The position numbers were made by a program, and so were the translations under genes. Of a stretch of 64,000 bases of DNA, positions 16,248 through 59,004 are shown in pieces (positions within the stretch are counted from its first letter, which is position 1; each line of letters opens with the position of its first letter). Under the pieces are notes generated by a model. The model worked only from the letters and a program-made list of their open reading frames with translations. It searched no databases and had not been told where the DNA came from. Location: the sequence record OR995200.1, one strand, 5' to 3'. This DNA is from Escherichia phage JY01.

Positions 16248-17070
<823 letters not shown>

Positions 17071-17086
<16 letters not shown>

Positions 17087-17430
17087 TGAAAGGGGCCAGA
17101 AGCAAATCCGCTATCTTTAATCATTTTAACTAAAGTTACCATTCCTCTGTTAACTGCTTGCGAGATTTCATCAAAAACTTCATCACTATCACCATAAAGA
17201 TCGCTAAAAAGTTCTAACACGTTCTTCTGAACTTTTAATTTACAGCCAACAAATTCGCCTACAGTAAATTCGTTTCCGCCAACTCCAGCGTAAAACGTAA
17301 TTACACCAGTTAATGGTCTTTCACTAGAACATAGGTCGTGTGATAAATTAATATAAGCCGTCCCGGGTGCAGTTTTAAGTTGGCAACGAATACTTACTCG
17401 AGCAATTCCAGCTACACGAATGTCAGACAT
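17071..17430 (-). CDS. hypothetical protein (frd.2 position)
   Basis: 119-aa ORF. Confidence 0.5.
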
Positions 17431-17440
17431 AATATTTTCC

Positions 17441-17683
17441 TCAAATAGACTTTTTCACAATTTTCCAATCAGCTTTAAACTGATCAACGTCAGAATGATA
17501 AATCCAGAATCCTGCGCTTTCTCCATCCTCATAAAGAGGGCATCTATCACATTCATCTTCCCATCCCATATCACGTAAAAGATGTTCAGCTTTTTCAACA
17601 AGTTCAGAATCTTTACCGATGATATTAAAATACCATTTACCTCTAACTTCCGAATCTTTGATGCTCTGACGTTGTAATCTCAT
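17441..17683 (-). CDS. hypothetical protein (frd.3 position)
   Basis: 80-aa ORF downstream of an early promoter module at 17791-17823. Confidence 0.5.
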   Translation of the reverse strand: MRLQRQSIKDSEVRGKWYFNIIGKDSELVEKAEHLLRDMGWEDECDRCPLYEDGESAGFWIYHSDVDQFKADWKIVKKSI

Positions 17684-17790
17684 TTTATTCTCCTTAGCAA
17701 GCTTTAATCAAAAGATATAAACAAACTAACATAACTGCTGCCATAATATAAGGTGCGAACATTTTCTTTTCTCCATTAGTTTTGATAGGG

Positions 17791-17823
17791 TAATAGTATC
17801 ACACTACTACCCTGCTGTAAACT
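17791..17823 (-). promoter_or_regulatory. T4-type early promoter module
   Basis: GTTTAC at 17818-17823 with conserved -10 and leader. Confidence 0.5.
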
Positions 17824-18256
17824 ACTTTTTGAAAGTTTTTCGCAAAAGTTCAATGATTCGATCTACATTGTTTTCGTCAACGATGCAGTGAATTTTTGTT
17901 ACGCCAGAAATCGTGTCTTCGCCTTCATCTTCAGAAATCGGTTCTTTATACTCGCGAAAGCAATAAAATTCGTCTTCGCAAATTTCTGAAAGTCTATCAC
18001 AAAAGTAAAAATGTTTTCCATTGGCGCATTCAATATGTTTTACTGCTTTAAATCCATTATTAAAGAAAACTTCTTTAACTTCAAACCATCCACCATTTTC
18101 TTTGATAATTTTAACTATCGATCCATTAGAACGTGGGCTATGACTAATAAATGCGTCAATGAGACTTGGAACAAGTTCATACTTTTTACCGATATACATT
18201 TTCTTTTCCTCATTTTTAACGGGGTTATTGATAGCCCCTTGATAATTATTGTTCAA
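17822..18256 (-). CDS. hypothetical Cys-rich protein
   Basis: 144-aa ORF; the true start may be the internal MYIGKKYEL. Confidence 0.4.
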
Positions 18257-18473
18257 TCAGTCCCATGTAAAACTCTGCGTCTTCGGCATCCATACCATCA
18301 CAGTATTCATTAGCCATAAAGCGTTCAAGAACTTCTAAAGGACCTTCAACAACAATTTGAATACTCCAAAATTTAGAATCTTGCACACTTGCGATGCTAA
18401 GTTCAGGATAACGATTACGAATAATCTCTTCAATATATTCAAAATCAACGATGTCAATATCAACTTTAGCCAT
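18246..18473 (-). CDS. hypothetical acidic protein
   Basis: 75 aa from MAKVDIDIV; the track ORF (to 18599) includes in-frame translation of the conserved promoter leader. Confidence 0.5.
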
Positions 18474-18512
18474 ATTATTTTCCTCTTTGATCATCAGCAG
18501 TATTGCCGATAG

Positions 18513-18545
18513 TTGTATAGTACCATGGAAGGACAAGGATGTAAA
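18513..18545 (-). promoter_or_regulatory. T4-type early promoter module
   Basis: GTTTAC at 18540-18545, -10 TATAGTACC, conserved leader CAACTATCGGC. Confidence 0.55.
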
Positions 18546-18571
18546 CCGTTTTGTGAAAAAATTTTTTGAAA

Positions 18572-18596
18572 TAAAAAAGGGGACCTCTAGGGTCCC
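18572..18596 (-). terminator. intrinsic terminator after gene 32
   Basis: Hairpin GGGGACCCUAGAGGUCCCC followed by UUUUUU on the minus-strand transcript. Confidence 0.65.
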
Positions 18597-18619
18597 CAAT
18601 TAATTAGTAATATAATCTA

Positions 18620-19528
18620 TTAAAGGTCATTCAAAAGGTCATCCAGGTCCGTGTCATCAGCACTAGATGAACTGCCAGAGCTTGAGCTCATAAAATCATC
18701 TTCAGTTTTTGTATTGAAGTCATCAACATTGAATGCATCCAAATCATCAGCAACTTTATCAGCTTTCTTAGCAGCAGTTGCAGCGGCACCGCCCATCACA
18801 GCAGTTCCCATAACTTGACCGAATTTAGTGCTCAGTTCTTCAAACGATTTGAATTTATCTTTAGAAGTCATTTCAGAAAGGTCAACCATTTGTTCGAACA
18901 GTTCTTTCTGGAAAGATTCATCGTCAATGTTTGGAATCGCAGATTGATTCAGGAATTTAGATTCATCGTAGTTACTAAATCCAGAAACCTGTTTAACTTT
19001 CAGTACAAAGTTAGCACCTTCCCACGGACAAGTTACATCAACTGGAGTTTCACCCATTTCAACATCAACTGCAATCATTGCATTGATTTTATCCCAGATT
19101 TTCTTACCGAAACGATATTTAAATACTTTACCTTCGTTTTCTGGAGCAGCTGGGTCTTTTACAACAAGAATGTTAGCCCAGTAAGAAGTTTTGCGTTTAA
19201 CAAGACTGTACTCTTTATTATCAGTGTTGTACAAATCATTTTTACTGATGTACTGACATACTGGACAAGAATCGTAATCACCGTGGGTAGATGAACACGT
19301 TTCAATATACCATTTGCCATTTTTCTTGAAACCATGATTTACAAGAATTGCGAATGGTGCTTGTTCATCATTTTTAGACGGAAGAAAACGAATTACTGCT
19401 TGACCGTTACCCGCATTGTCGAGTTTCAGTTTCCACTCGCCTTTATCTTCAGAAGAAAAACCACCTTTATTTCCAGCCAGTTTAGCCATTTGCGCGGCGA
19501 GTTCAGCAGTAGATTTACGTTTAAACAT
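18620..19528 (-). CDS. 32: gp32 single-stranded DNA-binding protein
   Basis: 302 aa; sequence as recalled for T4 gp32 including the acidic Ser-rich C-terminal tail. Confidence 0.97.
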
Positions 19529-19625
19529 TTTTATTTCCTTTTTAATTTAATTAACAGTTGGTGCTATGACGATGTATGACCTCATAGCTGGTCAGTGAGA
19601 TAATTATAATCTATTTATAATAAGC
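19529..19625 (-). promoter_or_regulatory. gene 32 5' leader (translational operator region) with upstream promoter-like elements
   Basis: AU-rich leader with UUAAAUUAA repeats before the ATG and a structured upstream segment, as known for gp32 autoregulation; MotA-box-like TTGCTTAT and TATAAT on the minus strand. Confidence 0.5.
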
Positions 19626-19627
19626 AA

Positions 19628-20281
19628 TTAATACTTGCAAGATTTCACAGTTTCAATAAAAACTTTTTTAGCTTCCTGTGAATCGATATTTAAAATTTTT
19701 CTATAAGCTTTTAACTTTATAGAATAATTATTCCAGACTAAATTATCAGTCTGTTCATCATGTTTATCAATTATATTTAAAAACGAATCAAGCAAGATAA
19801 ACGTCTCAAACGAAATTATGTTCGATTGCAGAAGTTTAAAAATATAACTTGATTGAACTTTTGGATTATATTCAAAAATTTCTTTAAAAGCAGAAACTTC
19901 AACTTTTTTACTAAAATAATAAATGTTGCGAATATCTTCTTCAAACTTAAATTTAATTTGCTTTAAGCGTCCGATATATTCACGATAAAACACAAGTGCA
20001 TCAGCGTCAGAGATGTCACCAATCCAAGCATCTTGGTTAGCAACCAAATTACTTATAAAGATTAAAGCAAGTTCCTTTAATTTATATTTTTCTGATAACT
20101 TCTGAAAAAAATACTTATCCCTTCGCTTTTGATAAGCGGCATCAGACACCCGCATGCACCAATTATACTTAATAACATCATACTTTCCATTCATATGTTG
20201 TTTTATCATTAAGTATAATTTATAAACTGATTTACCATCAATGTATCTTTCACCACCAGCAGGCATGCGGAGTTTAATCAT
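19628..20281 (-). CDS. 59: gp59 helicase loader
   Basis: 217 aa, same size as T4 gp59; synteny 32-59-33 with no segG between 32 and 59. Confidence 0.85.
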   Translation of the reverse strand: MIKLRMPAGGERYIDGKSVYKLYLMIKQHMNGKYDVIKYNWCMRVSDAAYQKRRDKYFFQKLSEKYKLKELALIFISNLVANQDAWIGDISDADALVFYREYIGRLKQIKFKFEEDIRNIYYFSKKVEVSAFKEIFEYNPKVQSSYIFKLLQSNIISFETFILLDSFLNIIDKHDEQTDNLVWNNYSIKLKAYRKILNIDSQEAKKVFIETVKSCKY

Positions 20282-20616
20282 AGCAGAAAATCTAATGTAT
20301 TAGTTTTTTCACAACGAACAACAGAAGGACGTAAAAGATTTTCGTCAATAGCTTCTGACTGAATTTTTTCAATTATACCCGAAGGAATAAATTTAGCAAA
20401 TTGAGTTTCAGGAATAGAATTTTCTTCTAAGAATGCTGTTGTAGCTTCAAGATAACTCATTCCAAACTCTTCTACCATTTTTTCAATAATAAATCCATTT
20501 TCTTGGCGGTCAAGAAGCTTTGCAATTTCATCCTTTTCTTTCTTAATTGAAAGTTCTTTTTCTGAAAGCCCGGCCTCATCGACCGGGCGAATATCATTTA
20601 GAGAAAACTGTGTCAT
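20278..20616 (-). CDS. 33: gp33 late-transcription co-activator
   Basis: 112 aa from MTQFSLND (track ORF starts 3 codons earlier); acidic; T4 position. Confidence 0.75.
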   Translation of the reverse strand: MTQFSLNDIRPVDEAGLSEKELSIKKEKDEIAKLLDRQENGFIIEKMVEEFGMSYLEATTAFLEENSIPETQFAKFIPSGIIEKIQSEAIDENLLRPSVVRCEKTNTLDFLL

Positions 20617-20863
20617 AAAGTTCAACTACCTCTTCAGTTTCAGCTTCAAACACATCACGATTATCTTTATGATACAAAGCTAATAGACGATTAAACATCT
20701 TGCCATCAACACCAAGTTCATCTTTGGCACGAATTCGAATATCTTTAATCAATTCATTATAACCGGAAATTTTCAGTTTATGATCAGATGCTTCTTTAAT
20801 AAATTTAGCCAAGTCTTCGCCATGGATAGCTTCATCAAATTCAACCATTTCTTTTTTAGCCAT
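20594..20863 (-). CDS. dsbA: DsbA double-stranded DNA-binding protein
   Basis: 89 aa, same size and position as T4 DsbA. Confidence 0.75.
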   Translation of the reverse strand: MAKKEMVEFDEAIHGEDLAKFIKEASDHKLKISGYNELIKDIRIRAKDELGVDGKMFNRLLALYHKDNRDVFEAETEEVVELYDTVFSK

Positions 20864-20871
20864 TATTCACC

Positions 20872-21789
20872 TCAAAATTCATTAATGCTATTAGTTAATT
20901 TAGAAAGACCCGCTTTTACAAAATATGAATAAATTTTGCCACGCGGTGGTAATTTATATGAATTATAGTAATTCACAATGTTTGAAGCAATATTATCAGG
21001 AATATAATCAAAATCAATTAGAACTAAATTTTCTTTATAACGATTATATTCAGATTCTGTGAGAAGCACCTTAGCTTGCTCACGGTCATTAGCAATAGCT
21101 TCAATGATTGAAGTTTTCATTGAAGGAGTTCGTTCACCTTCAACTTTGGTAAACCAAAAGTCAGATCGTACTTTAACTGAAGCAACGTTATCCTTTTTGT
21201 CGCCTTTAAGGATTTTAGTCATACAGTCAATTTCAGCAGAACCGCTTTTAATTTTAACCCATTTCTTGTGCATCGGTGACCATTGCTTAACATTTGGATA
21301 TTTGTGAAGTTGAGTAAAGTCACCATCAGATGAAATGATTAAAATCTTGTGTCCTTCTAAAGAGAACTTTTTAACAAGAACAGCAATGTGGTCATCTGCT
21401 TCATACTTATCGATATCCATAACAATGTATGGCATATAAGCTTTCAATTCATCTATAACTTTATGACTGGATTCAAAATAACCTTCCCAGTCCCAAGTAG
21501 ATTCTTCTCGTGCTTTTCCACGGTTTTTCTTATAATAATACGCGAAATCACGACGCCAATATCCAGATTTCGCATTATCAATACACAGTACAATTTTAGT
21601 GTATCCAAGAGTTTTTGCTTTTTTGACATTAAACTTAATTGAGTTCAATATCAAATGACGAACCATTGATAAATTAATTTTTTCTTTATCTGGAAAGTTT
21701 ACCAAAGCAGTTGAAAGCGCAATTTGACTAAAGTCAATAAAGCAAATTCCTTCTTTGTAATCTTCATCCAGCATCATTTCTAAATCCAT
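20872..21789 (-). CDS. rnh: RNase H (5'-3' exonuclease, FEN family)
   Basis: 305 aa from MDLEMMLDEDYKEG as recalled for T4 RNase H; track ORF has a 5-codon extension. Confidence 0.9.
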   Translation of the reverse strand: MDLEMMLDEDYKEGICFIDFSQIALSTALVNFPDKEKINLSMVRHLILNSIKFNVKKAKTLGYTKIVLCIDNAKSGYWRRDFAYYYKKNRGKAREESTWDWEGYFESSHKVIDELKAYMPYIVMDIDKYEADDHIAVLVKKFSLEGHKILIISSDGDFTQLHKYPNVKQWSPMHKKWVKIKSGSAEIDCMTKILKGDKKDNVASVKVRSDFWFTKVEGERTPSMKTSIIEAIANDREQAKVLLTESEYNRYKENLVLIDFDYIPDNIASNIVNYYNSYKLPPRGKIYSYFVKAGLSKLTNSINEF

Positions 21790-21816
21790 ATGAACCTCGT
21801 TCAATTAGTGAGATTT

Positions 21817-21848
21817 CTATTATATACCATCCAAATCTTAAAGTAAAC
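21817..21848 (-). promoter_or_regulatory. early promoter upstream of rnh
   Basis: GTTTAC at 21843-21848 with a -10 near 21817-21828. Confidence 0.45.
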
Positions 21849-21851
21849 AAG

Positions 21852-21859
21852 TATAAATA
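21852..21859 (+). promoter_or_regulatory. late promoter (TATAAATA) for gene 34
   Basis: Exact TATAAATA 35 nt upstream of the gene 34 ATG. Confidence 0.65.
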
Positions 21860-21893
21860 CTTATTATTGAAAACACAATAGGAGCCCGGGAGA

Positions 21894-24800
21894 ATGGCCG
21901 AGATTAAAAGAAAGTTCAGAGCAGAAGACGGTCTGGACGCAGGTGGTGATAAAATAATCAACGTAGCTTTAGCTGATCGTACCGTAGGAACTGACGGTGT
22001 AAACGTTGATTACTTAATTCAAGAAAACACAGTTCAACAATATGATCCAACTCGTGGATATTTAAAAGATTTTGTAATCATTTATGATAACCGCTTTTGG
22101 GCTGCTATAAATGATATTCCAAAACCAGCAGGAGCTTTTAATAGCGTACGATGGAGAGCGTTACGCACTGATGCAAACTGGACAACTGTTTCGTCAGGAC
22201 CTTATCAATTAAAATCAGGCGAATCGATTTCAGTTAACACCGCAGCGGGTAATGACATTACATTTACTTTGCCATCTTCTCCAATTGATGGTGATACTAT
22301 CGTTCTCCAAGATATTGGAGGAAAACCTGGAGTTAACCAGGTTTTAATTACAGCTCCGGTACAAAGCATTGTAAACTTTAGAGGTCAACAAGTACGCTCA
22401 GTACTAATGACTCATCCAAAATCACAGATAGTTTTAATTTTTAGTAATCGTCTGTGGCAAATGTATGTTGCTGATTATAGCAGAGAAGCGGCAGTTGTAA
22501 CACCGGCAAGTCTTTATCAAGCGCAATCAAACGATTTTATCGTGCGTAGATTTACTTCTGCTTCAGCAATTAATATTAAACTTCCAAGATTTGCTAATCA
22601 TGGCGATATTATTAATTTCGTTGATTTGGATAAATTAAATCCACTTTATCACACAATTGTTACCACATACGACGAAACGACTTCAGTACAAGAAGTTGGA
22701 ACTCATTCCATTGAAGGTCGTACATCTATTGATGGTTTCTTGATGTTTGATGATAATGAGAAATTGTGGAGATTGTTTGACGGGGATAGTAAAGCACGTT
22801 TACGCATTATAACGACTAATTCTAATATTCGTCCAAATGAAGAAGTCATGGTATTTGGCGCAAATAATGGAACAACCCAAACAATTGAACTTCAGCTTCC
22901 AACTGATATTTCTATCGGTGATACTGTTAAGATTTCCATGAATTATATGAGAAAAGGACAAACAGTTAAAATCAAAGCTGCCGGTGAAGATAAAATTGCT
23001 TCTTCAGTTCAATTGCTGCAATTTCCAAAACGTTCAGAATACCCACCTGAAACTAAATGGGTGACTGTTCAAGAATTAGTTTTTAATGGCGAAACCAATT
23101 ATGTTCCAGTTTTACAGCTTGCTTATATCGAAGATTCCGATGGAAAATATTGGGTTGTACAGCAAAACGTTCCAACTGTAGAAAGAGTAGACTCTTTAAA
23201 TAATTCTACTAGAGCAAGATTAGGCGTAATTGCTTTAGCTACACAGGCTCAAGCTAATGCTGATCTAGAAAATTCTCCACAAAAAGAATTGGCAATTACT
23301 CCAGAAACGTTAGCTAATCGTACTGCTACAGAAACTCGTAGAGGTATTGCAAGAATAGCAACAACTGCGCAAGTAAACCAGGATACCACATTCTCTTTTG
23401 CTGATGATATTATCATCACTCCTAAAAAGCTGAATGAAAGAACAGCTACTGAAACTCGCAGAGGTGTTGCTGAAATTGCTACGCAGCAAGAAACTAATGC
23501 AGGAACCGATGATACTACAATCATCACTCCTAAAAAGCTTCAAGCCCGCCAGGGTTCTGAGTCATTATCTGGTATTGTAACTTTTGTATCTACTGCAGGT
23601 GCTACTCCAGCTTCTAGCCGTGAATTAAATGGTACGAATGTTTATAATAAAAACACTAATAATTTAGTTGTTTCGCCAAAAGCTTTGGACCAGTATAAAG
23701 CTACGCCTACTCAACAGGGTGCAGTAATTTTAGCAGTTGAAAGTGAAGTAATTGCTGGTCAAAGTCAAGAAGGATGGGCAAATGCTGTTGTAACGCCAGA
23801 AACGTTACACAAAAAGACATCAACTGATGGAAGAATTGGATTAATTGAAATTGCTACGCAAAGTGAAGTTAATACAGGAACTGATTATACTCGTGCAGTC
23901 ACTCCTAAAACTTTAAATGACCGTAGAGCAACTGAAAGTTTAAGTGGTATAGCTGAAATTGCTACACAAGTTGAATTCGACGCAGGCGTCGACGATACTC
24001 GTATCTCTACACCATTAAAAATTAAAACTAGATTTAATAGTACTGATCGTACTTCTGTTGTTGCTCTATCTGGATTAGTTGAATCAGGAACTCTCTGGGA
24101 CCATTATACCCTTAATATTCTTGAAGCAAATGAGACACAACGTGGTACACTTCGTGTAGCTACACAAGTTGAAGCTGCTGCAGGAACATTAGATAATGTT
24201 TTAATAACTCCTAAAAAGCTTTTAGGTACTAAATCTACTGAAGCGCAAGAAGGTGTTATTAAAGTTGCAACACAAACCGAAACTGTTGCTGGAACATCGG
24301 CAAATACTGCTGTATCTCCAAAAAATTTAAAATGGATTGTGCAGAGTGAACCTACTTGGGCAGCTACTACTGCAGTAAGAGGCTTTGTTAAAACTTCATC
24401 TGGTTCAATTACATTCGTTGGTAATGATACAGCCGGTTCTACTCAGGACTTAGAGCTATACGAGAAAAATAGCTATGCAGTATCACCATACGAATTAAAC
24501 CGTGTATTAGCAAATTATTTGCCATTAAAAGCAAAAGCTGCAGATAGTAATTTATTGGATGGTCTAGATTCATCTCAGTTCATTCGTAGGGATATTGCGC
24601 AGACGGTTAATGGTTCACTAACCTTAACTCAACAAACGAATCTGAGTGCCCCTCTTGTATCATCTAGTACTGCTACGTTCGGTGGATCAGTTTCAGCAAA
24701 TAGTACATTAACTATTTCTAATACTGGAACAGCAACTCGATTGATTTTTGAGAAAGGACCTCAAACTGGAACAAACCCAGCCCAAACGATGACTGTTAGA

Positions 24801-25763
24801 GTGTGGGGAAATCAATTTAGTGGGGAATTAGATACAACACGTTCTACCGTATTTGAAGTTAGTGATGAAACATCTAGTCATTTTTATTCTCAGCGCAATA
24901 AAGCCGGAAATATAACATTTAATATCAACGGTACAGTAACACCGATAAATGTTAATGCTTCAGGAACATTGAATGCAAATGGCGTAGCAACATTTGGTAA
25001 TTCAGTCACTGCAACTGGTGAAATTATTTCTCGAAGCGCAAATGCTTTCCGTGCTATTAACGGAAATTACGGTTTCATTGTTCGCAATGATGGATCAGTA
25101 ACGAATTTTATGCTTACTGCATCGGGTGATCAGACTGGTGGATTTAATGGATTACGCCCATTAGCTATTAATAATGCATCTGGCCAAGTAACGATTGGTG
25201 AAAGCTTAATCATTGCCAAAGGTGCTACTATAAATTCAGGTGGTTTGACTGTTAACTCGAGAATTCGTTCTCAAGGTACTAAAACATCTGACTTATATAC
25301 ACGTGCGCCAACATCTGATACTGTAGGATTCTGGTCAATTGATATTAACGATTCAGCTACTTATAACCAGTTCCCAGGTTATTTTAAAATGGTTGAAAAA
25401 ACTAATGAAGTGACTGGTCTTCCATATTTAGAACGTGGCGAAGAAGTTAAATCTCCTGGTACACTGACTCAGTTTGGTAACACACTTGATTCGCTTTACC
25501 AAGATTGGATTACTTATCCAACAACGCCAGAAGCGCGTACCACTCGCTGGACACGTACATGGCAGAAAACCAAAAATTCTTGGTCAAGTTTTGTTCAGGT
25601 ATTTGATGGAGGTAACCCTCCTCAACCGTCTGATATCGGTGCTTTACCATCTGATAATGCTACAATGGGTAATCTTACTATTCGTGATTTCTTACGAATT
25701 GGTAATGTTCGCATTATTCCTGACCCAGTGAATAAAACTGTTAAATTTGAATGGGTTGAATAA
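21894..25763 (+). CDS. 34: gp34 long tail fibre proximal subunit
   Basis: 1289 aa (same as T4 gp34); internal repeats of the ...TATETRRG(I/V)A.IAT... type; TATAAATA late promoter upstream. Confidence 0.95.
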   Translation: MAEIKRKFRAEDGLDAGGDKIINVALADRTVGTDGVNVDYLIQENTVQQYDPTRGYLKDFVIIYDNRFWAAINDIPKPAGAFNSVRWRALRTDANWTTVSSGPYQLKSGESISVNTAAGNDITFTLPSSPIDGDTIVLQDIGGKPGVNQVLITAPVQSIVNFRGQQVRSVLMTHPKSQIVLIFSNRLWQMYVADYSREAAVVTPASLYQAQSNDFIVRRFTSASAINIKLPRFANHGDIINFVDLDKLNPLYHTIVTTYDETTSVQEVGTHSIEGRTSIDGFLMFDDNEKLWRLFDGDSKARLRIITTNSNIRPNEEVMVFGANNGTTQTIELQLPTDISIGDTVKISMNYMRKGQTVKIKAAGEDKIASSVQLLQFPKRSEYPPETKWVTVQELVFNGETNYVPVLQLAYIEDSDGKYWVVQQNVPTVERVDSLNNSTRARLGVIALATQAQANADLENSPQKELAITPETLANRTATETRRGIARIATTAQVNQDTTFSFADDIIITPKKLNERTATETRRGVAEIATQQETNAGTDDTTIITPKKLQARQGSESLSGIVTFVSTAGATPASSRELNGTNVYNKNTNNLVVSPKALDQYKATPTQQGAVILAVESEVIAGQSQEGWANAVVTPETLHKKTSTDGRIGLIEIATQSEVNTGTDYTRAVTPKTLNDRRATESLSGIAEIATQVEFDAGVDDTRISTPLKIKTRFNSTDRTSVVALSGLVESGTLWDHYTLNILEANETQRGTLRVATQVEAAAGTLDNVLITPKKLLGTKSTEAQEGVIKVATQTETVAGTSANTAVSPKNLKWIVQSEPTWAATTAVRGFVKTSSGSITFVGNDTAGSTQDLELYEKNSYAVSPYELNRVLANYLPLKAKAADSNLLDGLDSSQFIRRDIAQTVNGSLTLTQQTNLSAPLVSSSTATFGGSVSANSTLTISNTGTATRLIFEKGPQTGTNPAQTMTVRVWGNQFSGELDTTRSTVFEVSDETSSHFYSQRNKAGNITFNINGTVTPINVNASGTLNANGVATFGNSVTATGEIISRSANAFRAINGNYGFIVRNDGSVTNFMLTASGDQTGGFNGLRPLAINNASGQVTIGESLIIAKGATINSGGLTVNSRIRSQGTKTSDLYTRAPTSDTVGFWSIDINDSATYNQFPGYFKMVEKTNEVTGLPYLERGEEVKSPGTLTQFGNTLDSLYQDWITYPTTPEARTTRWTRTWQKTKNSWSSFVQVFDGGNPPQPSDIGALPSDNATMGNLTIRDFLRIGNVRIIPDPVNKTVKFEWVE

Positions 25764-25771
25764 GAGGTATT

Positions 25772-26887
25772 ATGGAAAAATTTATGGCAGAGTTTGGACA
25801 AGGATATGTCCAAACGCCATTTTTATCGGAAAGCAATTCAGTAAGATATAAAATAAGTATAGCGGGTTCTTGCCCGCTTTCTACCGCAGGACCATACGTT
25901 AAATTTCAAGATAATCCTGTAGGAAGTCAAACATTTAGTGCAGGTCTTCATTTAAGAGTTTTTGACCCTTCTACAGGAGCATTGGTTGATAGTAAGTCAT
26001 ATGTTTTTTCTACTTCAAATGATACAACATCTGCTGCCTTTGTTAGTTTCATGAATTCTTTTTCAAGCAATAGACTTGTTGCCATATTAACTAGCGGAAA
26101 GGTTAATTTTCCTCCTGAAGTAGTATCTTGGTTAAGAACGGCAGGAACATCTGCTTTTCCATCTGATTCTTTATTGTCAAGATTTGACGTATCATATGCT
26201 GCCTTTTACACTTCTTCTAAAAGAGCTATCGCACTAGAGCATGTTAAACTGAGTAACAGAAAAAGCACAGATGACTATCAAACTATATTAGATGTAGTAT
26301 TTGATAGTTTAGAAGATGTTGGAGCGACAGGATTTCCTAAAAGAACATATGAAAGCGTTGAGCAATTTATGTCAGCTGTTGGTGGAACTAATAACGAAAT
26401 TGCCCGTCTACCTACAGCATCTGCAATAAGTAAACTTTCTGACTATAATTTAATTCCTGGAGATGTTCTTTATCTTAAAGCACAACTATATGCTGACGCT
26501 GATTTATTAGCGTTGGGAACTACTAATATTTCAATTCGTTTTTATAATGCGTCGAATGGATATATTTCCTCGACACAAGCTGAGTTTACTGGACAGGCTG
26601 GGTCTTGGGAATTAAAGGAAGACTATGTAGTTGTTCCAGAAAATGCAGTTGGATTTACGATATATGCACAGAGAACTGCACAAGCGGGTCAAGGCGGTAT
26701 GAGAAATTTAAGCTTTTCTGAAGTGTCAAGAAATGGTGGCATTTCAAAACCTGCTGAGTTTGGCGTCAATGGTATTCGAGTTAATTATATCTGTGAATCT
26801 GCTTCACCTCCGGATATAATGGTACTTCCTACGCAAGCATCGTCTAAAACTGGTAAAGTGTTTGGACAGGAATTTAGAGAAGTTTAA
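25772..26887 (+). CDS. 35: gp35 long tail fibre hinge connector
   Basis: 371 aa, immediately after gene 34; hairpin plus T-tract terminator follows. Confidence 0.9.
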   Translation: MEKFMAEFGQGYVQTPFLSESNSVRYKISIAGSCPLSTAGPYVKFQDNPVGSQTFSAGLHLRVFDPSTGALVDSKSYVFSTSNDTTSAAFVSFMNSFSSNRLVAILTSGKVNFPPEVVSWLRTAGTSAFPSDSLLSRFDVSYAAFYTSSKRAIALEHVKLSNRKSTDDYQTILDVVFDSLEDVGATGFPKRTYESVEQFMSAVGGTNNEIARLPTASAISKLSDYNLIPGDVLYLKAQLYADADLLALGTTNISIRFYNASNGYISSTQAEFTGQAGSWELKEDYVVVPENAVGFTIYAQRTAQAGQGGMRNLSFSEVSRNGGISKPAEFGVNGIRVNYICESASPPDIMVLPTQASSKTGKVFGQEFREV

Positions 26888-26891
26888 ATTG

Positions 26892-26918
26892 AGGGAGCCT
26901 TCGGGTTCCCTTTTTCTT
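26892..26918 (+). terminator. intrinsic terminator after gene 35
   Basis: Hairpin GGGAGCC-UUCG-GGUUCCC followed by a T-run. Confidence 0.6.
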
Positions 26919-26926
26919 TATAAATA
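26919..26926 (+). promoter_or_regulatory. late promoter (TATAAATA) for gene 36
   Basis: Exact TATAAATA 24 nt upstream of the gene 36 ATG, just after the gene 35 terminator. Confidence 0.65.
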
Positions 26927-26949
26927 CTATTAAAATAAAGGGGCATACA

Positions 26950-27606
26950 ATGGCTGATTTAAAAGTAGGTTCAACAACTGGAGGCTCTGTCATTTGGCAT
27001 CAAGGAAATTTTCCATTGAATCCAGCCGGTGACGATGTACTCTATAAATCATTTAAAATATATTCAGAATACAATAAACCGCAAGCGGCTGATAACGATT
27101 TCGTTTCTAAAGCTAATGGTGGTACTTATTTAAATAAAGTAATTTTTAATAAAGGAATGACTGTTCCTGGTGCTGGGTCAGGTGACAACGGTATTTTTGC
27201 CGGTCCTGGTGATAATGCCACATATGATACTACAAATATGGATATTGTTTCATGGTATGGTATCGGCTTTAAATCATCACAAGGGGCAGCAGGTAGAACT
27301 GTAGTAATTAACACACGAAACGGAGATATTAGCTCAAAGGGTGTAATTGAAGCATCACAAATACGCGCAACTTCGTTATCACCAGTAAATAATTATGACC
27401 TTACGAGAAAAGATTATGTTGATGGGGCAATAAATATTGTTACAACAAATGCAAACTCTAGAGTATTACGCTCTGGAGACACTATGACAGGAAATTTAAC
27501 TGCGCCAAACCTTTTTTCACAGAATCCTGCATCTCAACCCTCGCATGTTCCGCGATTTGACCAAATCGTAATTAAGGATTCTGTTCAAGATTTCGGCTAT
27601 TATTAA
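26950..27606 (+). CDS. 36: gp36 long tail fibre distal connector
   Basis: 218 aa; TATAAATA late promoter at 26919-26926. Confidence 0.9.
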   Translation: MADLKVGSTTGGSVIWHQGNFPLNPAGDDVLYKSFKIYSEYNKPQAADNDFVSKANGGTYLNKVIFNKGMTVPGAGSGDNGIFAGPGDNATYDTTNMDIVSWYGIGFKSSQGAAGRTVVINTRNGDISSKGVIEASQIRATSLSPVNNYDLTRKDYVDGAINIVTTNANSRVLRSGDTMTGNLTAPNLFSQNPASQPSHVPRFDQIVIKDSVQDFGYY

Positions 27607-27614
27607 GAGGACTT

Positions 27615-31737
<4,123 letters not shown>

Positions 31738-31767
31738 TTTGAATAAATATCCTTAAAAGGAGGGTCT

Positions 31768-32424
31768 ATGTCAGCACCTAGAATATCATTTTCGCCCTCT
31801 GATATTCTATTTGGTGTTCTAGATCGCTTGTTCAAAGATAACGCTACCGGGAAAGTTCTTGCTTCCCGGATAGCTGTCGTAATTCTTTTGTTTATGATGG
31901 CGATTGTTTGGTATAGGGGAGATAGTTTCTTTGAGTACTATAAGCAATCAAAGTATGAAACATACAGTGAAATTATTGAAAAGGAAAGAAATGCACGCTT
32001 TGAATCTGTCGCCCTGGAACAACTCCAGATAGTTCATATATCATCTGAGGCAGACTTTAGTGCGGTGTATTCTTTCCGCCCTAAAAACTTAAACTATTTT
32101 GTTGATATTATAGCATATGAAGGAAAATTACCTTCAACAATAAGTGAAAAATCACTTGGAGGATATCCTGTTGATAAAACTATGGATGAATATGCAGTTC
32201 ATTTAAATGGACGTCATTATTATTCCAACTCAAAATTTGCTTTTTTACCAACTAAAAAGCCTACTCCCGAAATAAACTACATGTACAGTTGTCCATATTT
32301 TAATTTGGATAATATCTATGCTGGAACGATAACCATGTACTGGTATAGAAATGATCATATAAGTAATGACCGCCTTGAATCAATATGTGCTCAGGCGGCC
32401 AGAATATTAGGAAGGGCTAAATAA
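31768..32424 (+). CDS. t: holin T
   Basis: 218 aa; N-terminal TM segment (VVILLFMMAIVWY) and large periplasmic domain; matches T4 T as recalled. Confidence 0.95.
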   Translation: MSAPRISFSPSDILFGVLDRLFKDNATGKVLASRIAVVILLFMMAIVWYRGDSFFEYYKQSKYETYSEIIEKERNARFESVALEQLQIVHISSEADFSAVYSFRPKNLNYFVDIIAYEGKLPSTISEKSLGGYPVDKTMDEYAVHLNGRHYYSNSKFAFLPTKKPTPEINYMYSCPYFNLDNIYAGTITMYWYRNDHISNDRLESICAQAARILGRAK

Positions 32425-32697
32425 TTATTTGTTCGTATACATCTCTAGATATCGATATACACCCTCAAAACCCTCGTTGAATTCGTCGATGAGGGTTTTC
32501 TTATCTTCTTGAGTTAATTCAGAAACAATTTTACGGAATGAATTCTGATTTAATTTTCTACCTTCATGCGTTACTCCAATCTCATTCAGAAATGCAATAA
32601 AATTAGCACGATTTTCAACAATATCTTCTCTGGAAAATTTAATCAAAATAGACGCAACAGTAATAATTTCACGAACTGTATCAATGTTTTTATTCAT
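32425..32697 (-). CDS. asiA: anti-sigma70 factor AsiA
   Basis: 90 aa; sequence as recalled for T4 AsiA. Confidence 0.95.
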   Translation of the reverse strand: MNKNIDTVREIITVASILIKFSREDIVENRANFIAFLNEIGVTHEGRKLNQNSFRKIVSELTQEDKKTLIDEFNEGFEGVYRYLEMYTNK

Positions 32698-32709
32698 TAA
32701 CTATACCAC

Positions 32710-32862
32710 TCAATTAGTTGACTTTGTTATAATATCATCAGACGCTTGATTTGTAAACTGGTCTGTGTTATTTTCTTCAAAAATTTTTTCTACGAATTCC
32801 TTGAACGACTCGCGTTCCTGAGCTGCATTATGCTCGATTACCTTTTCAAGATTATGACTCAT
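32710..32862 (-). CDS. small acidic protein (asiA.1 position)
   Basis: 50-codon ORF missed by the 60-aa track cutoff; ATGA overlap with the upstream gene stop. Confidence 0.35.
   Translation of the reverse strand: MSHNLEKVIEHNAAQERESFKEFVEKIFEENNTDQFTNQASDDIITKSTN
32727..32759 (-). promoter_or_regulatory. early promoter upstream of asiA
   Basis: GTTTAC at 32754-32759 with a TATAAT-containing -10. Confidence 0.5.
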
Positions 32863-33137
32863 TCGAAATAATCTTCAATTTCGTAATCATGGACGTAAAT
32901 CATTATAGTTTTTAATACATCATCAATACTTTTTCCTGGAGCTGGAATTACGTAAAAATATCCTGCTTTTGAGAGGTCTTTATAAGTTCCAACCAAGAAA
33001 TCATTATTCTCGAGATGTAATTCTTCAACTAATTCATTAACAATTGAGTGGTATAAATTTGGTAGAAACTTATACAGCTTTTCTAGAATATCAATTTTGA
33101 TTGTGTATTGAACCACAGACTGAGAATCAATAATCAT
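32859..33137 (-). CDS. arn: Arn-like anti-restriction protein (DNA mimic, McrBC inhibitor)
   Basis: 92 aa, acidic; size and position between asiA and motA as T4 Arn. Confidence 0.6.
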   Translation of the reverse strand: MIIDSQSVVQYTIKIDILEKLYKFLPNLYHSIVNELVEELHLENNDFLVGTYKDLSKAGYFYVIPAPGKSIDDVLKTIMIYVHDYEIEDYFE

Positions 33138-33220
33138 AGACCTTCCCCTTATGTTTCTGTTTGCGATTAGATTCTTTAAACGCTTTCTTCTTATCCTTAT
33201 GAACAGAAGCTTTATTAAAA

Positions 33221-33439
33221 TTATGTTTTGCGACTAAATTGTTCATAATGCTGAATTACCTCTCTTAAACATTTGCATGTGAATGAGAACTTTTTAGCTA
33301 CACCACATTCAAATATATGTTCTCTTAAATCACGTGTATCAGTATATCCCATCTCAACAATAAAATGCCTTATTAGATTTTTATCTTTATCATTGAGAGA
33401 ATTAAAATAATCAGATTTTGAATTAATTTCCCTGGCCAA
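33221..33439 (-). CDS. hypothetical Cys-containing protein (arn.x)
   Basis: 72-aa ORF. Confidence 0.4.
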   Translation of the reverse strand: MAREINSKSDYFNSLNDKDKNLIRHFIVEMGYTDTRDLREHIFECGVAKKFSFTCKCLREVIQHYEQFSRKT

Positions 33440-33719
33440 ATTGAATCACCTTCAGTTGACGTTTTAATTCTTTTATCATTTCTTCGTTCATCGCAATATA
33501 AAGATCGCGTAAAGCAGGTTTTAGCATTCCATTTACCGGAGAACTAAATGGGCATACATAATCTTTTCCTACAAGCTTTTTGGTAAATTCCATATCACAA
33601 AATTTAAATGCTGGCTCATTCGCATAAATTCCCCAATTAGTTGACATCATTTTATTGGCATATTCCAGTGCCTGAATTTGATTCATAATTCCATCGATTT
33701 GAAACTTTTTAATATTCAT
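33423..33719 (-). CDS. hypothetical protein (arn.x)
   Basis: 98-aa ORF. Confidence 0.45.
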   Translation of the reverse strand: MNIKKFQIDGIMNQIQALEYANKMMSTNWGIYANEPAFKFCDMEFTKKLVGKDYVCPFSSPVNGMLKPALRDLYIAMNEEMIKELKRQLKVIQFGQGN

Positions 33720-34180
33720 TAGTAAAGGTCCTCAGAGTAAAGTTCTTTTTCACTACCACCACGTTCAATACGTACTTGTCCAGCGTAAGTTGCAATAATC
33801 ATTGCTTCTTCACGTGTCCAATAATTACTATATTGGTCAATAAACCCTTGGTCATCATCACAAACTTGTTGAGTAACTAATTGAGGTTTAACTACATCTA
33901 AAACTTCGGCCATATCTTTAGAATAATGACGAGCACCTGGAATAATAAGAGTTCGTCCATCTTTTAATTTAAAACGGTTGGCCGCGCAGACAATTCGTCG
34001 TTGATACTTTTGGTTTTCATCCCAATATGCAGTCTGCCAACATATTTCAGGAACTTCTTTTAGAATATCTTCTTCTGTGCATTTATAACCATGCGCTTTA
34101 AATTTTTCAGCAAGACTTTCTGGAGTTTCACGAGATAAAGGAACATTCAGCATTTTTAAACGATTGATAAATGGGTTCAT
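33719..34180 (-). CDS. hypothetical protein (arn.x)
   Basis: 153-aa ORF. Confidence 0.45.
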
Positions 34181-34506
34181 TTAAACCATCCTTTAATACG
34201 TTGCCACAAAGTTTTCTGTTGAGCTTTGTTAACACCAATTGAGCGAATAACTGGTTGAGATTCCTGGAATTCTTTATAATCGGCAAGGTAAATTTCGTAA
34301 GCTGCATCTGTAAAGGAACTTATCGCTGCCATGAAATTATTGCGAATACCTACTGGAGCATCTTTACTTTCACGAATAATCATGTATTTACCAGTCTTAA
34401 TCTTTACAATAGTTCCAAGATAAGCTCCATGGTACCAAATATCCCAACCCTCTTGAGTAGGTTCTGCACAACGACGAAGTTCATTGATAATTTCTAACTT
34501 GTTCAT
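34177..34506 (-). CDS. hypothetical protein (arn.x)
   Basis: 109-aa ORF. Confidence 0.45.
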
Positions 34507-34516
34507 TATTTATTCC

Positions 34517-35152
34517 TCACAGTTCAGATGCTACAGTGATTACTGCTTCAATGTTTTCTTCCGAGCGTTTAATGTCAAGATACACATTACCGTTTTTAGC
34601 GATTTTACATGACATTCCGATATCAGTAAATTTCTGAATATGATGTTCCATCATTTTGTATCCAAAAATTCGCATATTTCCATTGTTGTTAATTTCAAAA
34701 TTACGAATTCCGTGAGTGCGTTTTTCTAAAATAGCGAGATAGTTACTACGATAAGTTTCGACCTTTTTAAGAACAAATCCATTTTCATCTAAAAGTTTTA
34801 ACATGAGGTCTTTATCTTCTTCCATATCAGAAGTAATCTCACGAGCTTTACGAGTTGCTCGTTTTTTCAGTAGTTCCGGAGCATTTTCCTGTGCGTATAA
34901 AGTTGCTGCATTTGAAATAATATCCTGAGCTTCACCAGTAATGATTAATCCATCACCTGATTTCTCCACCAGGCCTTTTTTAATCAACACCCCAATATTA
35001 CTATTAACTACTGCGTTACCTAAATCTGGATGCACCTCACGAACTTCTGCAGCTGTAATGAAATCTTTCTTAGCAATAGTAATTAAAATCGCAGCAGTTT
35101 TTTCATTCAGAACATCGTTAGAAGCTTTGATGATGTAAGTTACTTTAGACAT
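34517..35152 (-). CDS. motA: MotA middle-transcription activator
   Basis: 211 aa; matches T4 MotA as recalled; early promoter module just upstream. Confidence 0.9.
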   Translation of the reverse strand: MSKVTYIIKASNDVLNEKTAAILITIAKKDFITAAEVREVHPDLGNAVVNSNIGVLIKKGLVEKSGDGLIITGEAQDIISNAATLYAQENAPELLKKRATRKAREITSDMEEDKDLMLKLLDENGFVLKKVETYRSNYLAILEKRTHGIRNFEINNNGNMRIFGYKMMEHHIQKFTDIGMSCKIAKNGNVYLDIKRSEENIEAVITVASEL

Positions 35153-35191
35153 TTTCTAATCTCCGTAATTCTGTATCAGTAGTTGATAGTT

Positions 35192-35223
35192 GTATAGTAC
35201 CACAGTATGCTTTGGTTGTAAAC
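35192..35223 (-). promoter_or_regulatory. early promoter upstream of motA
   Basis: GTTTAC at 35218-35223, -10 TATAGTACC, conserved leader. Confidence 0.55.
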
Positions 35224-35249
35224 CGTTTTGTGAAAAAAATTTTTGAAAT

Positions 35250-35276
35250 AAAAAAAGGGAGAGCCGAGGCTCTCCC
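35250..35276 (-). terminator. intrinsic terminator after gene 52 / motA.1
   Basis: Hairpin GGGAGAGCC-UCG-GCUCUCCC followed by UUUUUUU. Confidence 0.65.
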
Positions 35277-35282
35277 TAAAAA

Positions 35283-35432
35283 TTACTGCATGACTGTGAT
35301 AACTGTCATGATAACACGTTGAATGCCGAACGCAAGAAGACCTCCTGCTACGGCTGGAACAACACCTAAACCCGCCAGTAAAATGCTACCGGATACTAAT
35401 GCAGCGCTTGTAATACCTATGAATGGACTCAT
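35283..35432 (-). CDS. small hydrophobic membrane peptide
   Basis: 49-codon ORF (MSPFIGITSAALVSGSILLAGLG...); ATGA overlap with gene 52 stop; below track cutoff. Confidence 0.4.
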   Translation of the reverse strand: MSPFIGITSAALVSGSILLAGLGVVPAVAGGLLAFGIQRVIMTVITVMQ

Positions 35433-36757
35433 TTGATTTCCTCTAAATCTTTAGTGTATTCGGTAACTACATTAGTAGTTTTCCAATATTCGTTTTCTTC
35501 TTTCTTAGCTTTAGCTTCTTCAGCAAGTTTCTTTGCTTCGTCGGAAGTCATATGAAAAATATTCATTCCAACTAGTTTATCAACATAAGAAGAATACATA
35601 TCGATTTTCGAAAGTTCTTCGGTCAGTTCTTTGCGAGTTTTACCCTGCACAACGATTTCACCTGAAATTACTTTCTTAATGAAATGTGCCTTGGCAAAGG
35701 CTAAACGAAAAGCTGACTCAGTTTCTTTGATTTTGTTATCAATTCGTTTTTTGACATAAGTTTTACGAACTTCAACAAAGTCTTTAATTAAATCGACTAC
35801 GTTATCGTAAACTTGTAGTTTTCCTTTCTCATTAATAACCGTAATATTCTGAGAACGGCGCTCAATTAACCCAAAGTCTTTCATAATTTTTGCATGGCGT
35901 TCTTCTTCATTATCGCTCAAAGAATATTCTTTACGGAATTTAACTTTAAAGCCAAAACCATGCTCACCACAAGCATCATCCCATGTAATGAAGCCTTTAT
36001 CTTCAAGTGGGTCTAAGATTTTACTCACATAAGTTTCACGATCATACTTATACGGAATCTCAGTGATATGCATTTGAGTTCGTGAAGTAAACTTATATGT
36101 TCCACGAATTTCATATTGCCCATCAATCTCAACGACTTCACCACGAAATTCTGGGAATTCTACCTTCGGTTTAGTTACTTTCTTTCCTTGAAGAGCTTGT
36201 AATACAGCTTTCTTAACAGAAGAAACGCTATGAGGAAGAATGTAAGTTGCATAACCAGTTGCAATACCGGAAACGCCATTAAGAAGAACAGTAGGAATAA
36301 TAGGCAAATAGAAAGCAGGCGGAATGTGTTCTTTATCTTGATGTACCGGAGCATATTCAGTATCTTTATATACGTTATAGAAATTTTTACTTACACGAGC
36401 AAAAATATAACGACTTGCTGCTGCTTTTTGGACGGTACGAGAACCAAAGTTTCCTTGACCATCTAACAAAGGAAAGTTATTATTCCAAGTGTTAGCCATC
36501 AAAGCCCCCGCATCTTGTGCAGAGTTTTCACCATGATGATATCCAAGGTCAGCTACACCACCTGCAATAGAAGCAAGTTTGTGAAACTTATCTTTATTTC
36601 CTCGTGCTAAATCAAGGGCTCGAGCAATAACAAATCGTTGGACTGGCTTAAATCCGTCAATCATATTTGGAATGGCACGATTTTCAACCGTGTACATAGC
36701 ATAAGCCAATGCTTCATTATCAATGATACTTTTTAAATCGCGATTATTCAGTTGCAT
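35429..36757 (-). CDS. 52: DNA topoisomerase II medium subunit (GyrA-like)
   Basis: 442 aa, same size as T4 gp52; synteny motA-52-ac-stp-ndd. Confidence 0.9.
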   Translation of the reverse strand: MQLNNRDLKSIIDNEALAYAMYTVENRAIPNMIDGFKPVQRFVIARALDLARGNKDKFHKLASIAGGVADLGYHHGENSAQDAGALMANTWNNNFPLLDGQGNFGSRTVQKAAASRYIFARVSKNFYNVYKDTEYAPVHQDKEHIPPAFYLPIIPTVLLNGVSGIATGYATYILPHSVSSVKKAVLQALQGKKVTKPKVEFPEFRGEVVEIDGQYEIRGTYKFTSRTQMHITEIPYKYDRETYVSKILDPLEDKGFITWDDACGEHGFGFKVKFRKEYSLSDNEEERHAKIMKDFGLIERRSQNITVINEKGKLQVYDNVVDLIKDFVEVRKTYVKKRIDNKIKETESAFRLAFAKAHFIKKVISGEIVVQGKTRKELTEELSKIDMYSSYVDKLVGMNIFHMTSDEAKKLAEEAKAKKEENEYWKTTNVVTEYTKDLEEIK

Positions 36758-38325: not shown

Positions 38326-38359
38326 GGTAATAGTACCACGGAAGAACAGTCTTGTAAAC
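38326..38359 (-). promoter_or_regulatory. T4-type early promoter module
   Basis: GTTTAC at 38354-38359 with conserved -10 and leader CAACTACGGAGG. Confidence 0.55.
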
Positions 38360-38832: not shown

Positions 38833-38865
38833 TGTATAGTACCACGGTCCTTGTGGTATGTAAAC
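38833..38865 (-). promoter_or_regulatory. T4-type early promoter module
   Basis: GTTTAC at 38860-38865, -10 TATAGTACC, conserved leader. Confidence 0.55.
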
Positions 38866-39480: not shown

Positions 39481-39510
39481 CAAAAGGGCCGAAGCCCCTT
39501 ATTTTATTTG
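39481..39510. terminator. bidirectional terminator hairpin
   Basis: GGGCCGAAGCCC stem-loop flanked by A-run on one side and T-run on the other. Confidence 0.55.
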
Positions 39511-39698: not shown

Positions 39699-39726
39699 AA
39701 TTTTCCTTAGTTAAGGGCCGAAGCCC

Positions 39727-40665
39727 TTATTTAAATTGTTCAGTAACGTCTTCAACTACTTCGTATTGGCAGGTACGCATTTTAGCGTCGTTGTAATCAA
39801 TCGGAATTGATACTACATCACGTGGATGTACTTTAACTTTTACAACTCGGCTGGTTGAACTGCCAAAGTGACGAATATAAGATTTAGAACACACATGCAG
39901 ACCACGAGAACAAGTTTGTGTATCATCATCATTCACACGAGTACGTGGCATTTTAACTACTTTACCCGGACTGTTATCAAAGGTGTTTGAGTGACAGTCA
40001 AAGTAGTTGTCACGAACTACTTTCCAAGCATAGAAGTAACCATCTTCGGTGATTTCAATATCGTTTGCTACCAAGAAATCAAAGAGTCGAGATACCGCTT
40101 TTTGGCTTGGGTTTTCCAGCAGATTTTCCAAGAACGGAAAATAAAATTCAAAGTTTTCGCCTTTTTCCATCGAGTCAAGAATACGATCAACCAAACCAGA
40201 CCGCAATTCAATATTTTGATAGAACAAGCTTCCACCTTCAATTCGAACATCACCGGAAATATATTTTTCAACAGCGCGACGAACATTAATTTTTTGTGCC
40301 GCTTCTTCCAACTTATCTGCTACAAGCAGATTAAGAATTTCCTGGAAGTTTGAATGAGTATTAGGAGTTGCGTTATAAGTTACACCGTCAACAGTAATTG
40401 AAATGAATTTTTTAGAAGCATTCCAAATAATATCAGATTTAGCAACTGGAGCAATAGCTACATCGCTATTAACTTTAACTGTAATATCACCGCTAATAGT
40501 AACTTTAGGGCGTTTAGCTTCTTCAGCATTTTTCAAAACACGACGGATTGTGTCAACCGATACATCCTTCCAATAAGCTAATTCCTGCTGAGTGTAATTA
40601 CCGCTTGAATACAATTTAACAATTTCAGCTTGTTCGTTTTTGGTCAGGCATTTAATATTGTACAT
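39727..40665 (-). CDS. rIIB: rIIB protein
   Basis: 312 aa, same as T4 rIIB, adjacent to rIIA. Confidence 0.9.
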   Translation of the reverse strand: MYNIKCLTKNEQAEIVKLYSSGNYTQQELAYWKDVSVDTIRRVLKNAEEAKRPKVTISGDITVKVNSDVAIAPVAKSDIIWNASKKFISITVDGVTYNATPNTHSNFQEILNLLVADKLEEAAQKINVRRAVEKYISGDVRIEGGSLFYQNIELRSGLVDRILDSMEKGENFEFYFPFLENLLENPSQKAVSRLFDFLVANDIEITEDGYFYAWKVVRDNYFDCHSNTFDNSPGKVVKMPRTRVNDDDTQTCSRGLHVCSKSYIRHFGSSTSRVVKVKVHPRDVVSIPIDYNDAKMRTCQYEVVEDVTEQFK

Positions 40666-56170: not shown

Positions 56171-56202
56171 CTATTATACCATACTCATTTTGATATGTAA
56201 AC
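56171..56202 (-). promoter_or_regulatory. T4-type early promoter module
   Basis: GTTTAC at 56197-56202 with a TATAAT-type -10. Confidence 0.5.
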
Positions 56203-56212
56203 CGGTAAAATG

Positions 56213-56236
56213 AAAAAAGGAACCCCGAAGGATTCC
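56213..56236 (-). terminator. intrinsic terminator after soc
   Basis: Hairpin GGAAUCC-UUCG-GGGUUCC followed by UUUUUU. Confidence 0.6.
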
Positions 56237-56244
56237 TTAAATTA

Positions 56245-58645: not shown

Positions 58646-58646
58646 A

Positions 58647-59003: not shown

Positions 59004-59004
59004 A

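Follow-up and report, generated by a model that had tools for sequence, protein, structure and literature searches.

Predicted terminator and early-promoter junctions beside gene 32 and motA in a T4-type phage: a repeated cassette with variable spacers

Why do two intergenic segments of one phage genome, each lying between a different pair of genes, share a stretch of nearly the same sequence, and what is the role of the GC-rich hairpin that each of them carries? We addressed this question in a 64,000-nt window (the whole stretch of DNA analysed here, whose numbering is used throughout) by comparing the segment at 18505-18596 (locus A) with the one at 35184-35276 (locus B). A sequence-only reading had taken the two for copies of a repeated promoter/terminator cassette. 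All of the strings that it quoted are where it had put them, and the cassette interpretation is right: both the order of the elements on the minus strand and the membership of the two copies in a larger promoter family agree with it. The segments are very probably minus-strand transcription-unit junctions, at which a terminator is followed by a T4 early promoter, and they probably resemble each other through exchange within a cassette subfamily. Composites of this type are known in kind, from the T4 early promoters and from the promoter-early stem-loop (PeSL) cassettes of T4-type phages (Arbiol et al. 2010, PMC2839356; Comeau et al. 2014, PMC4122927), and locus A is known in its specific identity; nothing at either locus lies outside known T4 biology.

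The two junctions and the repeat they share

Over 1.5 kb around the finding, the sequence has 99.5% identity to Shigella phage Sf23, and it matches hundreds of Tequatrovirus records; judged from its sequence, the window is a T4-type phage genome of the Tequatrovirus group. The genes at both loci are on the minus strand. Locus A is flanked by the stop codon of gene 32 (18620-19528; a 302-aa ORF identified as the single-stranded DNA-binding protein from the annotation of matching records) and the ATG at 18473 of a 75-aa gene (18246-18473), whose orthologue is annotated as frd.3 in T4 and RB59. This frd.3-like gene is downstream of the locus A promoter, with the ribosome-binding site AAAGAGGAAA upstream of its ATG. 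Locus B separates the stop codon of its upstream unit, a motA.1-like gene for a small membrane protein of 49 aa (35283-35432), from the ATG at 35152 of motA (34517-35152; 211 aa), which encodes the activator of middle transcription, is downstream of the locus B promoter and has a ribosome-binding site that contains GGAG at 35161-35164.

Translation of these modules had also been held responsible for false N-terminal extensions in the list of open reading frames. This is true of frd.3: its mechanically called ORF (18246-18599) opens at a TTG within the hairpin and gains 42 residues before the real MAKVD start. It is not true of motA, whose ORF begins at the true ATG at 35152 and carries no such extension. 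Spurious plus-strand ORFs cross both modules (18451-18603 and 35212-35322), and both contain the peptide NRFVKK(F/I)FEIKKG, which is the translated repeat. The modules thus account for the false N-terminal extension of frd.3 and for the spurious plus-strand ORFs, which makes them useful in annotation.

In a repeat search, the match between 18508-18583 and 35185-35260 (86% identity over 76 nt) was the top direct-repeat family in the window. It includes three exact blocks, GATAGTTGTATAGTACCA (18 nt; 18508-18525 and 35185-35202), TGTAAACCGTTTTGTGAAAAAA (22 nt; 18540-18561 and 35217-35238) and TTTTTGAAATAAAAAA (16 nt; 18563-18578 and 35240-35255). The offset of 16677 nt is common to all three, so the copies are in register and free of gaps; the differences between them fall mostly within the 17-nt promoter spacer. 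In 30 first-order Markov simulations of the window, the longest exact repeat had a mean length of 16.5 nt and a maximum of 20 nt, which puts the 22-mer with its two collinear blocks far beyond chance. A coincidental match in AT-rich sequence, for which one might cite the 65% A+T content and the homopolymer runs, is rejected by the repeat search and these simulations and can practically be dismissed, as the blocks of 22, 18 and 16 nt share one offset and the same pair is also found in T4 and in hundreds of relatives.

Other direct repeats were seen elsewhere in the window. Families with a spacing of 108 nt occupy 23402-24305 on the plus strand, in an apparent long tail-fibre gene, and a 49-nt repeat (58643-58691 and 59001-59049; 94% identical, 358 nt apart) is found where two small tandem minus-strand genes appear to start.

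Predicted early promoters and their spacer alleles

Both copies contain the same series of promoter elements. At locus A, an A/T-rich stretch, ATTTC-A6-T6-CACAAAACG (18547-18572; about -62 to -37), which resembles an UP element and may function as one, is followed by the -35 element GTTTACA (18540-18546), the signature of T4 early promoters. Next come the 17-nt spacer TCCTTGTCCTTCCATGG (18523-18539), which is the variable part and ends in the 3-nt TGn element, and the -10 hexamer TACTAT (18517-18522), extended by the TGG that precedes it. The conserved start region ACAACTATC (18508-18516) has a predicted start at the A at about 18510, judged from its spacing to the -10 element. At locus B, the motA promoter consists of the putative UP-like stretch ATTTC-A5-T7-CACAAAACG (35224-35249), the -35 element GTTTACA (35217-35223), the 17-nt spacer ACCAAAGCATACTGTGG (35200-35216) with a TGn element at its end, the -10 hexamer TACTAT (35194-35199) with TGG upstream, and ACAACTATC (35185-35193), where the start is predicted at about 35187.

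T4 early promoters have an UP/-35/TGn/-10 architecture with GTTTAC at -36 to -31, and are used by the unmodified host polymerase at once after infection (Hinton 2010, PMC2988021; Nolan et al. 2006, PMC1524935). In sequence, both copies are promoters of this type: each has GTTTAC(A/T), a 17-nt spacer and TGG-TACTAT, and they are oriented toward frd.3 and motA, respectively. The likeness extends to the TGn extended -10, the TAnnnT hexamer, the A/T-rich upstream region and the location ahead of early genes, motA among them, and we found nothing that would set the two copies apart in kind. In both, the A5-6/T6-7 tracts occupy about -57 to -46, where the family consensus is also A/T-rich, and they are probably an UP element.

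The window has 16 exact matches to GTTTAC-N18-TANNNT, all of them on the minus strand and each with a ribosome-binding site and an ATG 20-45 nt downstream. When these sites were aligned in register, the TG at -15/-14 was conserved, the upstream region was A/T-rich and the start region was weakly conserved. The combination of TACTAT with ACAACTATC defines a subfamily, to which loci A and B belong together with two further members, at 38359 and 38865. The -10 TACTAT and the -35 TTTACA agree with the Escherichia coli consensus at only 9 of 12 positions; a generic sigma-70 scan gave no overall enrichment (77 sites found, 68.5 expected).

The resemblance between the two loci exceeds what the promoter family has in common, as A and B share 73% identity over 95 nt (the family median is 42%) and agree at places where the family consensus is weak or different, for example in CACAAAACG and ACAACTATC. 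Among 14 Tequatrovirus genomes, locus A carries four unrelated spacer alleles between near-identical flanks. The allele of Pu-Krd-SF2 and the motA spacer agree at 17 of 18 positions, compared with a family mean of 6.9. This motA-like allele is common at locus A: 157 of 462 matching records, including UFV-AREG1, JB75 and a Hafnia phage, align through the spacer. Other alleles resemble the spacers of the two subfamily promoters in the ndd region: the window's own allele matches that of the 38359 promoter at 12-14 of 18 positions, and the pSe_SNUABM_01 allele matches that of the 38865 promoter at 13 of 18. Such a distribution of spacer alleles suggests that paralogous cassettes exchange sequence and that the conserved blocks serve them as homology arms. 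At the C/T site of ATTT[C/T]AAAA, a comparison of A with B within genomes gave no consistent signal of concerted evolution (A/B is T/T in T4, C/C in the window and C/T in both pSe_SNUABM_01 and Shinka).

It could be argued that A and B have simply converged on the early-promoter consensus under selection for contacts with RNA polymerase, with neither shared descent nor exchange. GTTTAC, TG, TAnnnT and the A/T-rich upstream region are indeed common to 16 of 16 family members, and an extended consensus is known for T4 early promoters. Such convergence does not explain why A and B are so much closer to each other than the family median, or why they agree where the consensus is weak; nor does it explain why a spacer that is free of consensus should equal the motA spacer at 17 of 18 positions in many phages, or why other alleles should come so far above the family mean in their likeness to the ndd-region spacers. 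We therefore regard convergence as a very improbable explanation and exchange within one cassette subfamily as the better account of the resemblance.

Hairpins at the ends of the upstream transcription units

The GC-rich hairpins lie between the upstream genes and the promoters. At locus A, the predicted terminator hairpin GGGGACC-CTAGA-GGTCCCC (18579-18597), recognized from its fold, a terminator scan and its identity to the T4 gene-32 terminator, starts 22 nt past the gene 32 stop codon and is followed by a T6 tract (18573-18578). At locus B, the corresponding hairpin, GGGAGAGC-CTCG-GCTCTCCC (35257-35276), which was recognized from its fold, the terminator scan and the terminator annotation in related records, starts only 6 nt past the motA.1 stop codon and is followed by a T7 tract (35250-35256). 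Both hairpins still pair, as had been claimed: the folding check gave -14.3 kcal/mol for locus A (a 7-bp stem with 6 GC pairs and a 5-nt loop) and -20.8 kcal/mol for a 66-nt stretch at locus B (a stem of 8-9 bp with 6 GC pairs and a 4-nt loop). Compared with shuffled sequences, the locus B fold had z = -5.4; the locus A hairpin, with z = -1.6 against shuffles of its 66-nt context, is only mildly better than these and not exceptional. In a search of both strands of the region 17000-36500, locus B and locus A were, in this order, the best two terminator-like sites.

The description of each segment as ending in a GC hairpin plus T-tract holds for the presence of both elements and has to be restricted to one strand. 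It is on the minus, coding strand that the T6 and T7 tracts stand directly 3' of the stems, as expected of intrinsic terminators; on the plus strand, an A-tract precedes the hairpin at both loci. The hairpin RNAs quoted in the sequence-only reading were the antisense versions, and the actual transcripts read GGGGACCCUAGAGGUCCCC and GGGAGAGCCUCGGCUCUCCC. By analogy with known intrinsic terminators, we infer that both hairpins act as Rho-independent terminators in this phage. Other annotators have marked a terminator, or a terminator and a promoter, at these sites in related records, and five of six T4-like genomes have been predicted to carry a terminator after gene 32 (PMC2988021, PMC1524935). 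The T4 RefSeq record has no promoter or terminator features at either site, and no Rfam family reached its gathering threshold anywhere in the window.

A scan of the minus strand of the window for GC hairpins with T-tracts returned seven strong predicted terminators, of which four are then followed by an early promoter. These four composites are at 2497, 18597, 35277 and 56238, and GTTTAC begins 14-32 nt past the stem. Besides loci A and B, they comprise the composite at 2418-2497 (hairpin 2476-2497, GTTTAC 28 nt past the stem) and the one at 56173-56238 (hairpin 56217-56238, GTTTAC 14 nt past the stem), both on the minus strand. The window also contains a second family of hairpins, (A)GGGGC-CGAA/TTCG-GCCCC(T), with the loop in both orientations (1599-1614, 30931-30946, 39484-39499 and 39700-39737). 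In two cases, 39484-39499 and 39700-39737, the hairpin separates a minus-strand stop codon from the ribosome-binding site and ATG that come next; a T-tract accompanies only one of the two.

Differences between the stems of A and B had been read as compensatory changes, and hence as a sign of selection on structure. The first part of this argument fails. Similarity between the loci sets in at the T-tract rather than inside the stems, and the hairpins follow different upstream genes, so they cannot be shown to be homologous or to contain co-varied positions, and the two hairpins are ruled out as a pair of co-varying homologues. Selection on structure, which does not follow from A versus B, can instead be argued from the orthologues of gene 32. 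We collected 25 T4-like gene-32 loci, with gp32 identities to the query of 56-99%. A hairpin with a T-tract follows the gene 32 stop codon in all 25, and GTTTAC comes next in nearly all of them. The stems have 14 distinct sequences, with the pair type variable at six of the seven inner stem positions. Pairs were counted on a manual, loop-anchored alignment, as MAFFT put the hairpins with 5-nt loops out of register. In the 14 distinct hairpins, 98 of 98 inner stem positions are paired, compared with 62-63% after a 1-nt shift of the partner, a result that is partly due to construction, since each orthologue hairpin was chosen by folding that very sequence. The independent evidence for conservation of the structure is its constant position and the T-tract.

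Among the relatives, anything from about 11 to over 100 nt separates the hairpin from the -35 element, which indicates that terminator and promoter are adjacent modules and not one fixed device. An early promoter likewise precedes motA in all 12 loci examined, where the upstream hairpins differ. In other T4-like genera, long inverted repeats with arms of about 20 nt, such as GGCACATATAAGTTACATTA...TAATGTAACTTATATGTGCC, are inserted after the gene-32 terminator and ahead of the early promoter that follows it.

Within Tequatrovirus, the stems at both loci are unchanged while the loops flip. The locus A loop (window 18584-18592) is CTAGA in the window, T4 and most others, and TCTAG in Shinka, Pu-Krd-SF2 and IME340. 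At locus B (35265-35268), the window shares the loop CTCG with about half of the genomes; T4 and the others have CGAG, apart from one genome with CTTG. Since each flip alters two to five bases at once, one inversion of the hairpin is the best explanation for it. Taken together, these variants suggest a scheme to which we give about even credence: the UP/-35 and extended -10/start blocks that flank the spacer would act as homology arms for short-tract gene conversion, yielding a set of interchangeable promoter variants at one locus within the phage population, and the loop flips would imply strand switching at the hairpin or a cruciform.

Loop flips at both loci mean that the palindromes are active at the level of DNA, and this bears on the question of whether the hairpins terminate transcription at all. 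They might serve mainly as 3' stabilisers or processing barriers, or as cruciform targets for recombination, with read-through dominating over inefficient termination. The authors who described PeSLs wrote of terminators/attenuators and speculated about a DNA-binding recombination protein, and T4 transcript ends have often been viewed as the ends of stable RNA rather than as sites of termination. We consider this unlikely in view of the GC stem with its immediate U-tract, which is the signature of an intrinsic terminator, the service of the gene-32 hairpin as a terminator in vectors, and the finding that a PeSL stem-loop and the strong rrnB T1 terminator lowered lacZ expression to a similar degree.

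On the preferred reading of terminator plus early promoter, RNA polymerase leaving gene 32 (locus A) or gene 52/motA.1 (locus B) would meet a GC hairpin and six to seven U residues, and transcription would end there by Rho-independent termination. The early promoter directly downstream would be used by the unmodified host sigma-70 RNA polymerase right after infection, with transcription starting probably inside ACAACTATC, so that the locus A promoter would drive frd.3 and the locus B promoter motA. The two junctions would owe their likeness to membership in one cassette subfamily that trades sequence by homologous recombination or gene conversion. While the anatomy of the junctions, their place in the promoter family and their conservation are direct observations, termination, initiation and the UP-element role in this phage are deduced from the literature on T4. 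MotA is known to be made early, from an mRNA in which RegB cleaves the Shine-Dalgarno sequence (PMC2988021, PMC1524935). A limited literature search found no genome-wide maps of T4 5' or 3' ends.

PeSL cassettes, gene mobility and the gene-32 terminator as a cloning part

The published T4/PST consensus of PeSLs is TTTACW-N17-TAYWAT with a stem-loop just upstream (PMC2839356, PMC4122927), and both copies, with TTTACA-N17-TACTAT, fit it. They share with PeSLs the order of parts, in which a stem-loop terminator stands close upstream of an early promoter that is followed by a ribosome-binding site and an ATG, as well as repetition in the genome, here as four composites in 64 kb and a 16-promoter family. 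Also shared is the occurrence of indels between close relatives, represented here by an additional ORF at locus B in ASO78A-type phages and by the spacer alleles at locus A. Unlike typical PeSLs, A and B flank the conserved gene 32 and motA and not ORFans in hyperplastic regions, although the same papers allow some PeSLs in core regions, and the exchange at locus A is a swap of a 17-nt spacer rather than of an ORF. The parts of the two papers available to us report ORF exchange and contain neither spacer-level exchange nor loop flips, and the gene 32/frd.3 and motA sites are not named in those parts of their main text. The self-contained character of the cassettes, with a promoter before and a terminator behind that insulate neighbouring transcription, is also that of phage 'morons' (Hendrix et al. 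2000, via PMC2839356).

Two promoters of the TGG-TACTAT type in the ndd region, at 38330-38359 and 38836-38865, lie 506 bp apart in direct orientation, which is the geometry that has been proposed for PeSL mini-circles. The old T4 record X75802 annotates both sites as promoters.

In the ASO78A-type phages, an extra ORF of 75 aa is inserted between motA.1 and motA. It has the B cassette on one side and a second early promoter on the other, and the 23-nt direct repeat CTATCAAATAAATGAACTGAAAC follows each of the two -10 elements; motA in these phages has a different promoter and leader. An uncultivated genome, IMGVR_UViG_2974787500_000001, has degraded versions of both cassettes. Its locus B has lost 42 nt, from the T-tract through the -35 element, and at locus A the last codons of gene 32 and the hairpin are missing, with the upstream part of another early promoter in their place. 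This degradation may be real or may be an assembly artefact.

The direct repeats around the inserted ORF, the swapped spacer alleles and the published evidence for PeSL-mediated shuffling and mini-circles raise the possibility that the cassette is primarily a mobile recombination element for gene shuffling, with regulation as a secondary role. Both loci adjoin conserved core genes, gene 32 and motA, and the positions of terminator and promoter at these genes are kept across genera, which argues for a primarily regulatory role. No dedicated recombinase is known, and since A and B are direct repeats separated by 16.7 kb, recombination between them would remove essential genes. We thus view primary mobility as unlikely and prefer to see the cassettes as regulatory junctions that also exchange sequence.

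The specific identity of locus A is clear from T4 itself, in which the hairpin and its flanks are identical to those of the window; locus B is nearly identical. The hairpin and T-tract of locus A are also identical to the T4 gene 32 Rho-independent terminator, which is used in interposon-type cassettes and in SEVA/mini-Tn5 vectors. A vector paper describes this terminator, with its GGGACCC motif, as placed behind resistance genes in transposon vectors. Plasmid pCoo has aph(3')-IIIa between two inverted copies of a 117-bp T4 fragment, which spans the hairpin together with the end of gene 32 and the -35 element. The vector fragment ends at a HindIII site inside the spacer allele of T4 and is therefore devoid of the -10 element; the window differs in carrying another spacer allele, which has no HindIII site. 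The pCoo record, NC_007635, contains at 1028 and 3001 an engineered kanamycin-resistance cassette with the inverted 117-bp terminator fragments and a polylinker, which identifies the record as a marked derivative and not native pCoo.

As a discovery, the junctions carry little weight, being textbook T4 junctions of a kind that was named PeSL in 2010-2014, one of which includes a terminator in common use as a cloning part. They mark transcription-unit boundaries at gene 32/frd.3 and motA.1/motA. What the present analysis adds is modest and consists of population-level evidence for the exchange of 17-nt spacers and for the inversion of hairpin loops, which together support the view that conserved regulatory cassettes are substrates for recombination in T4-type phages.
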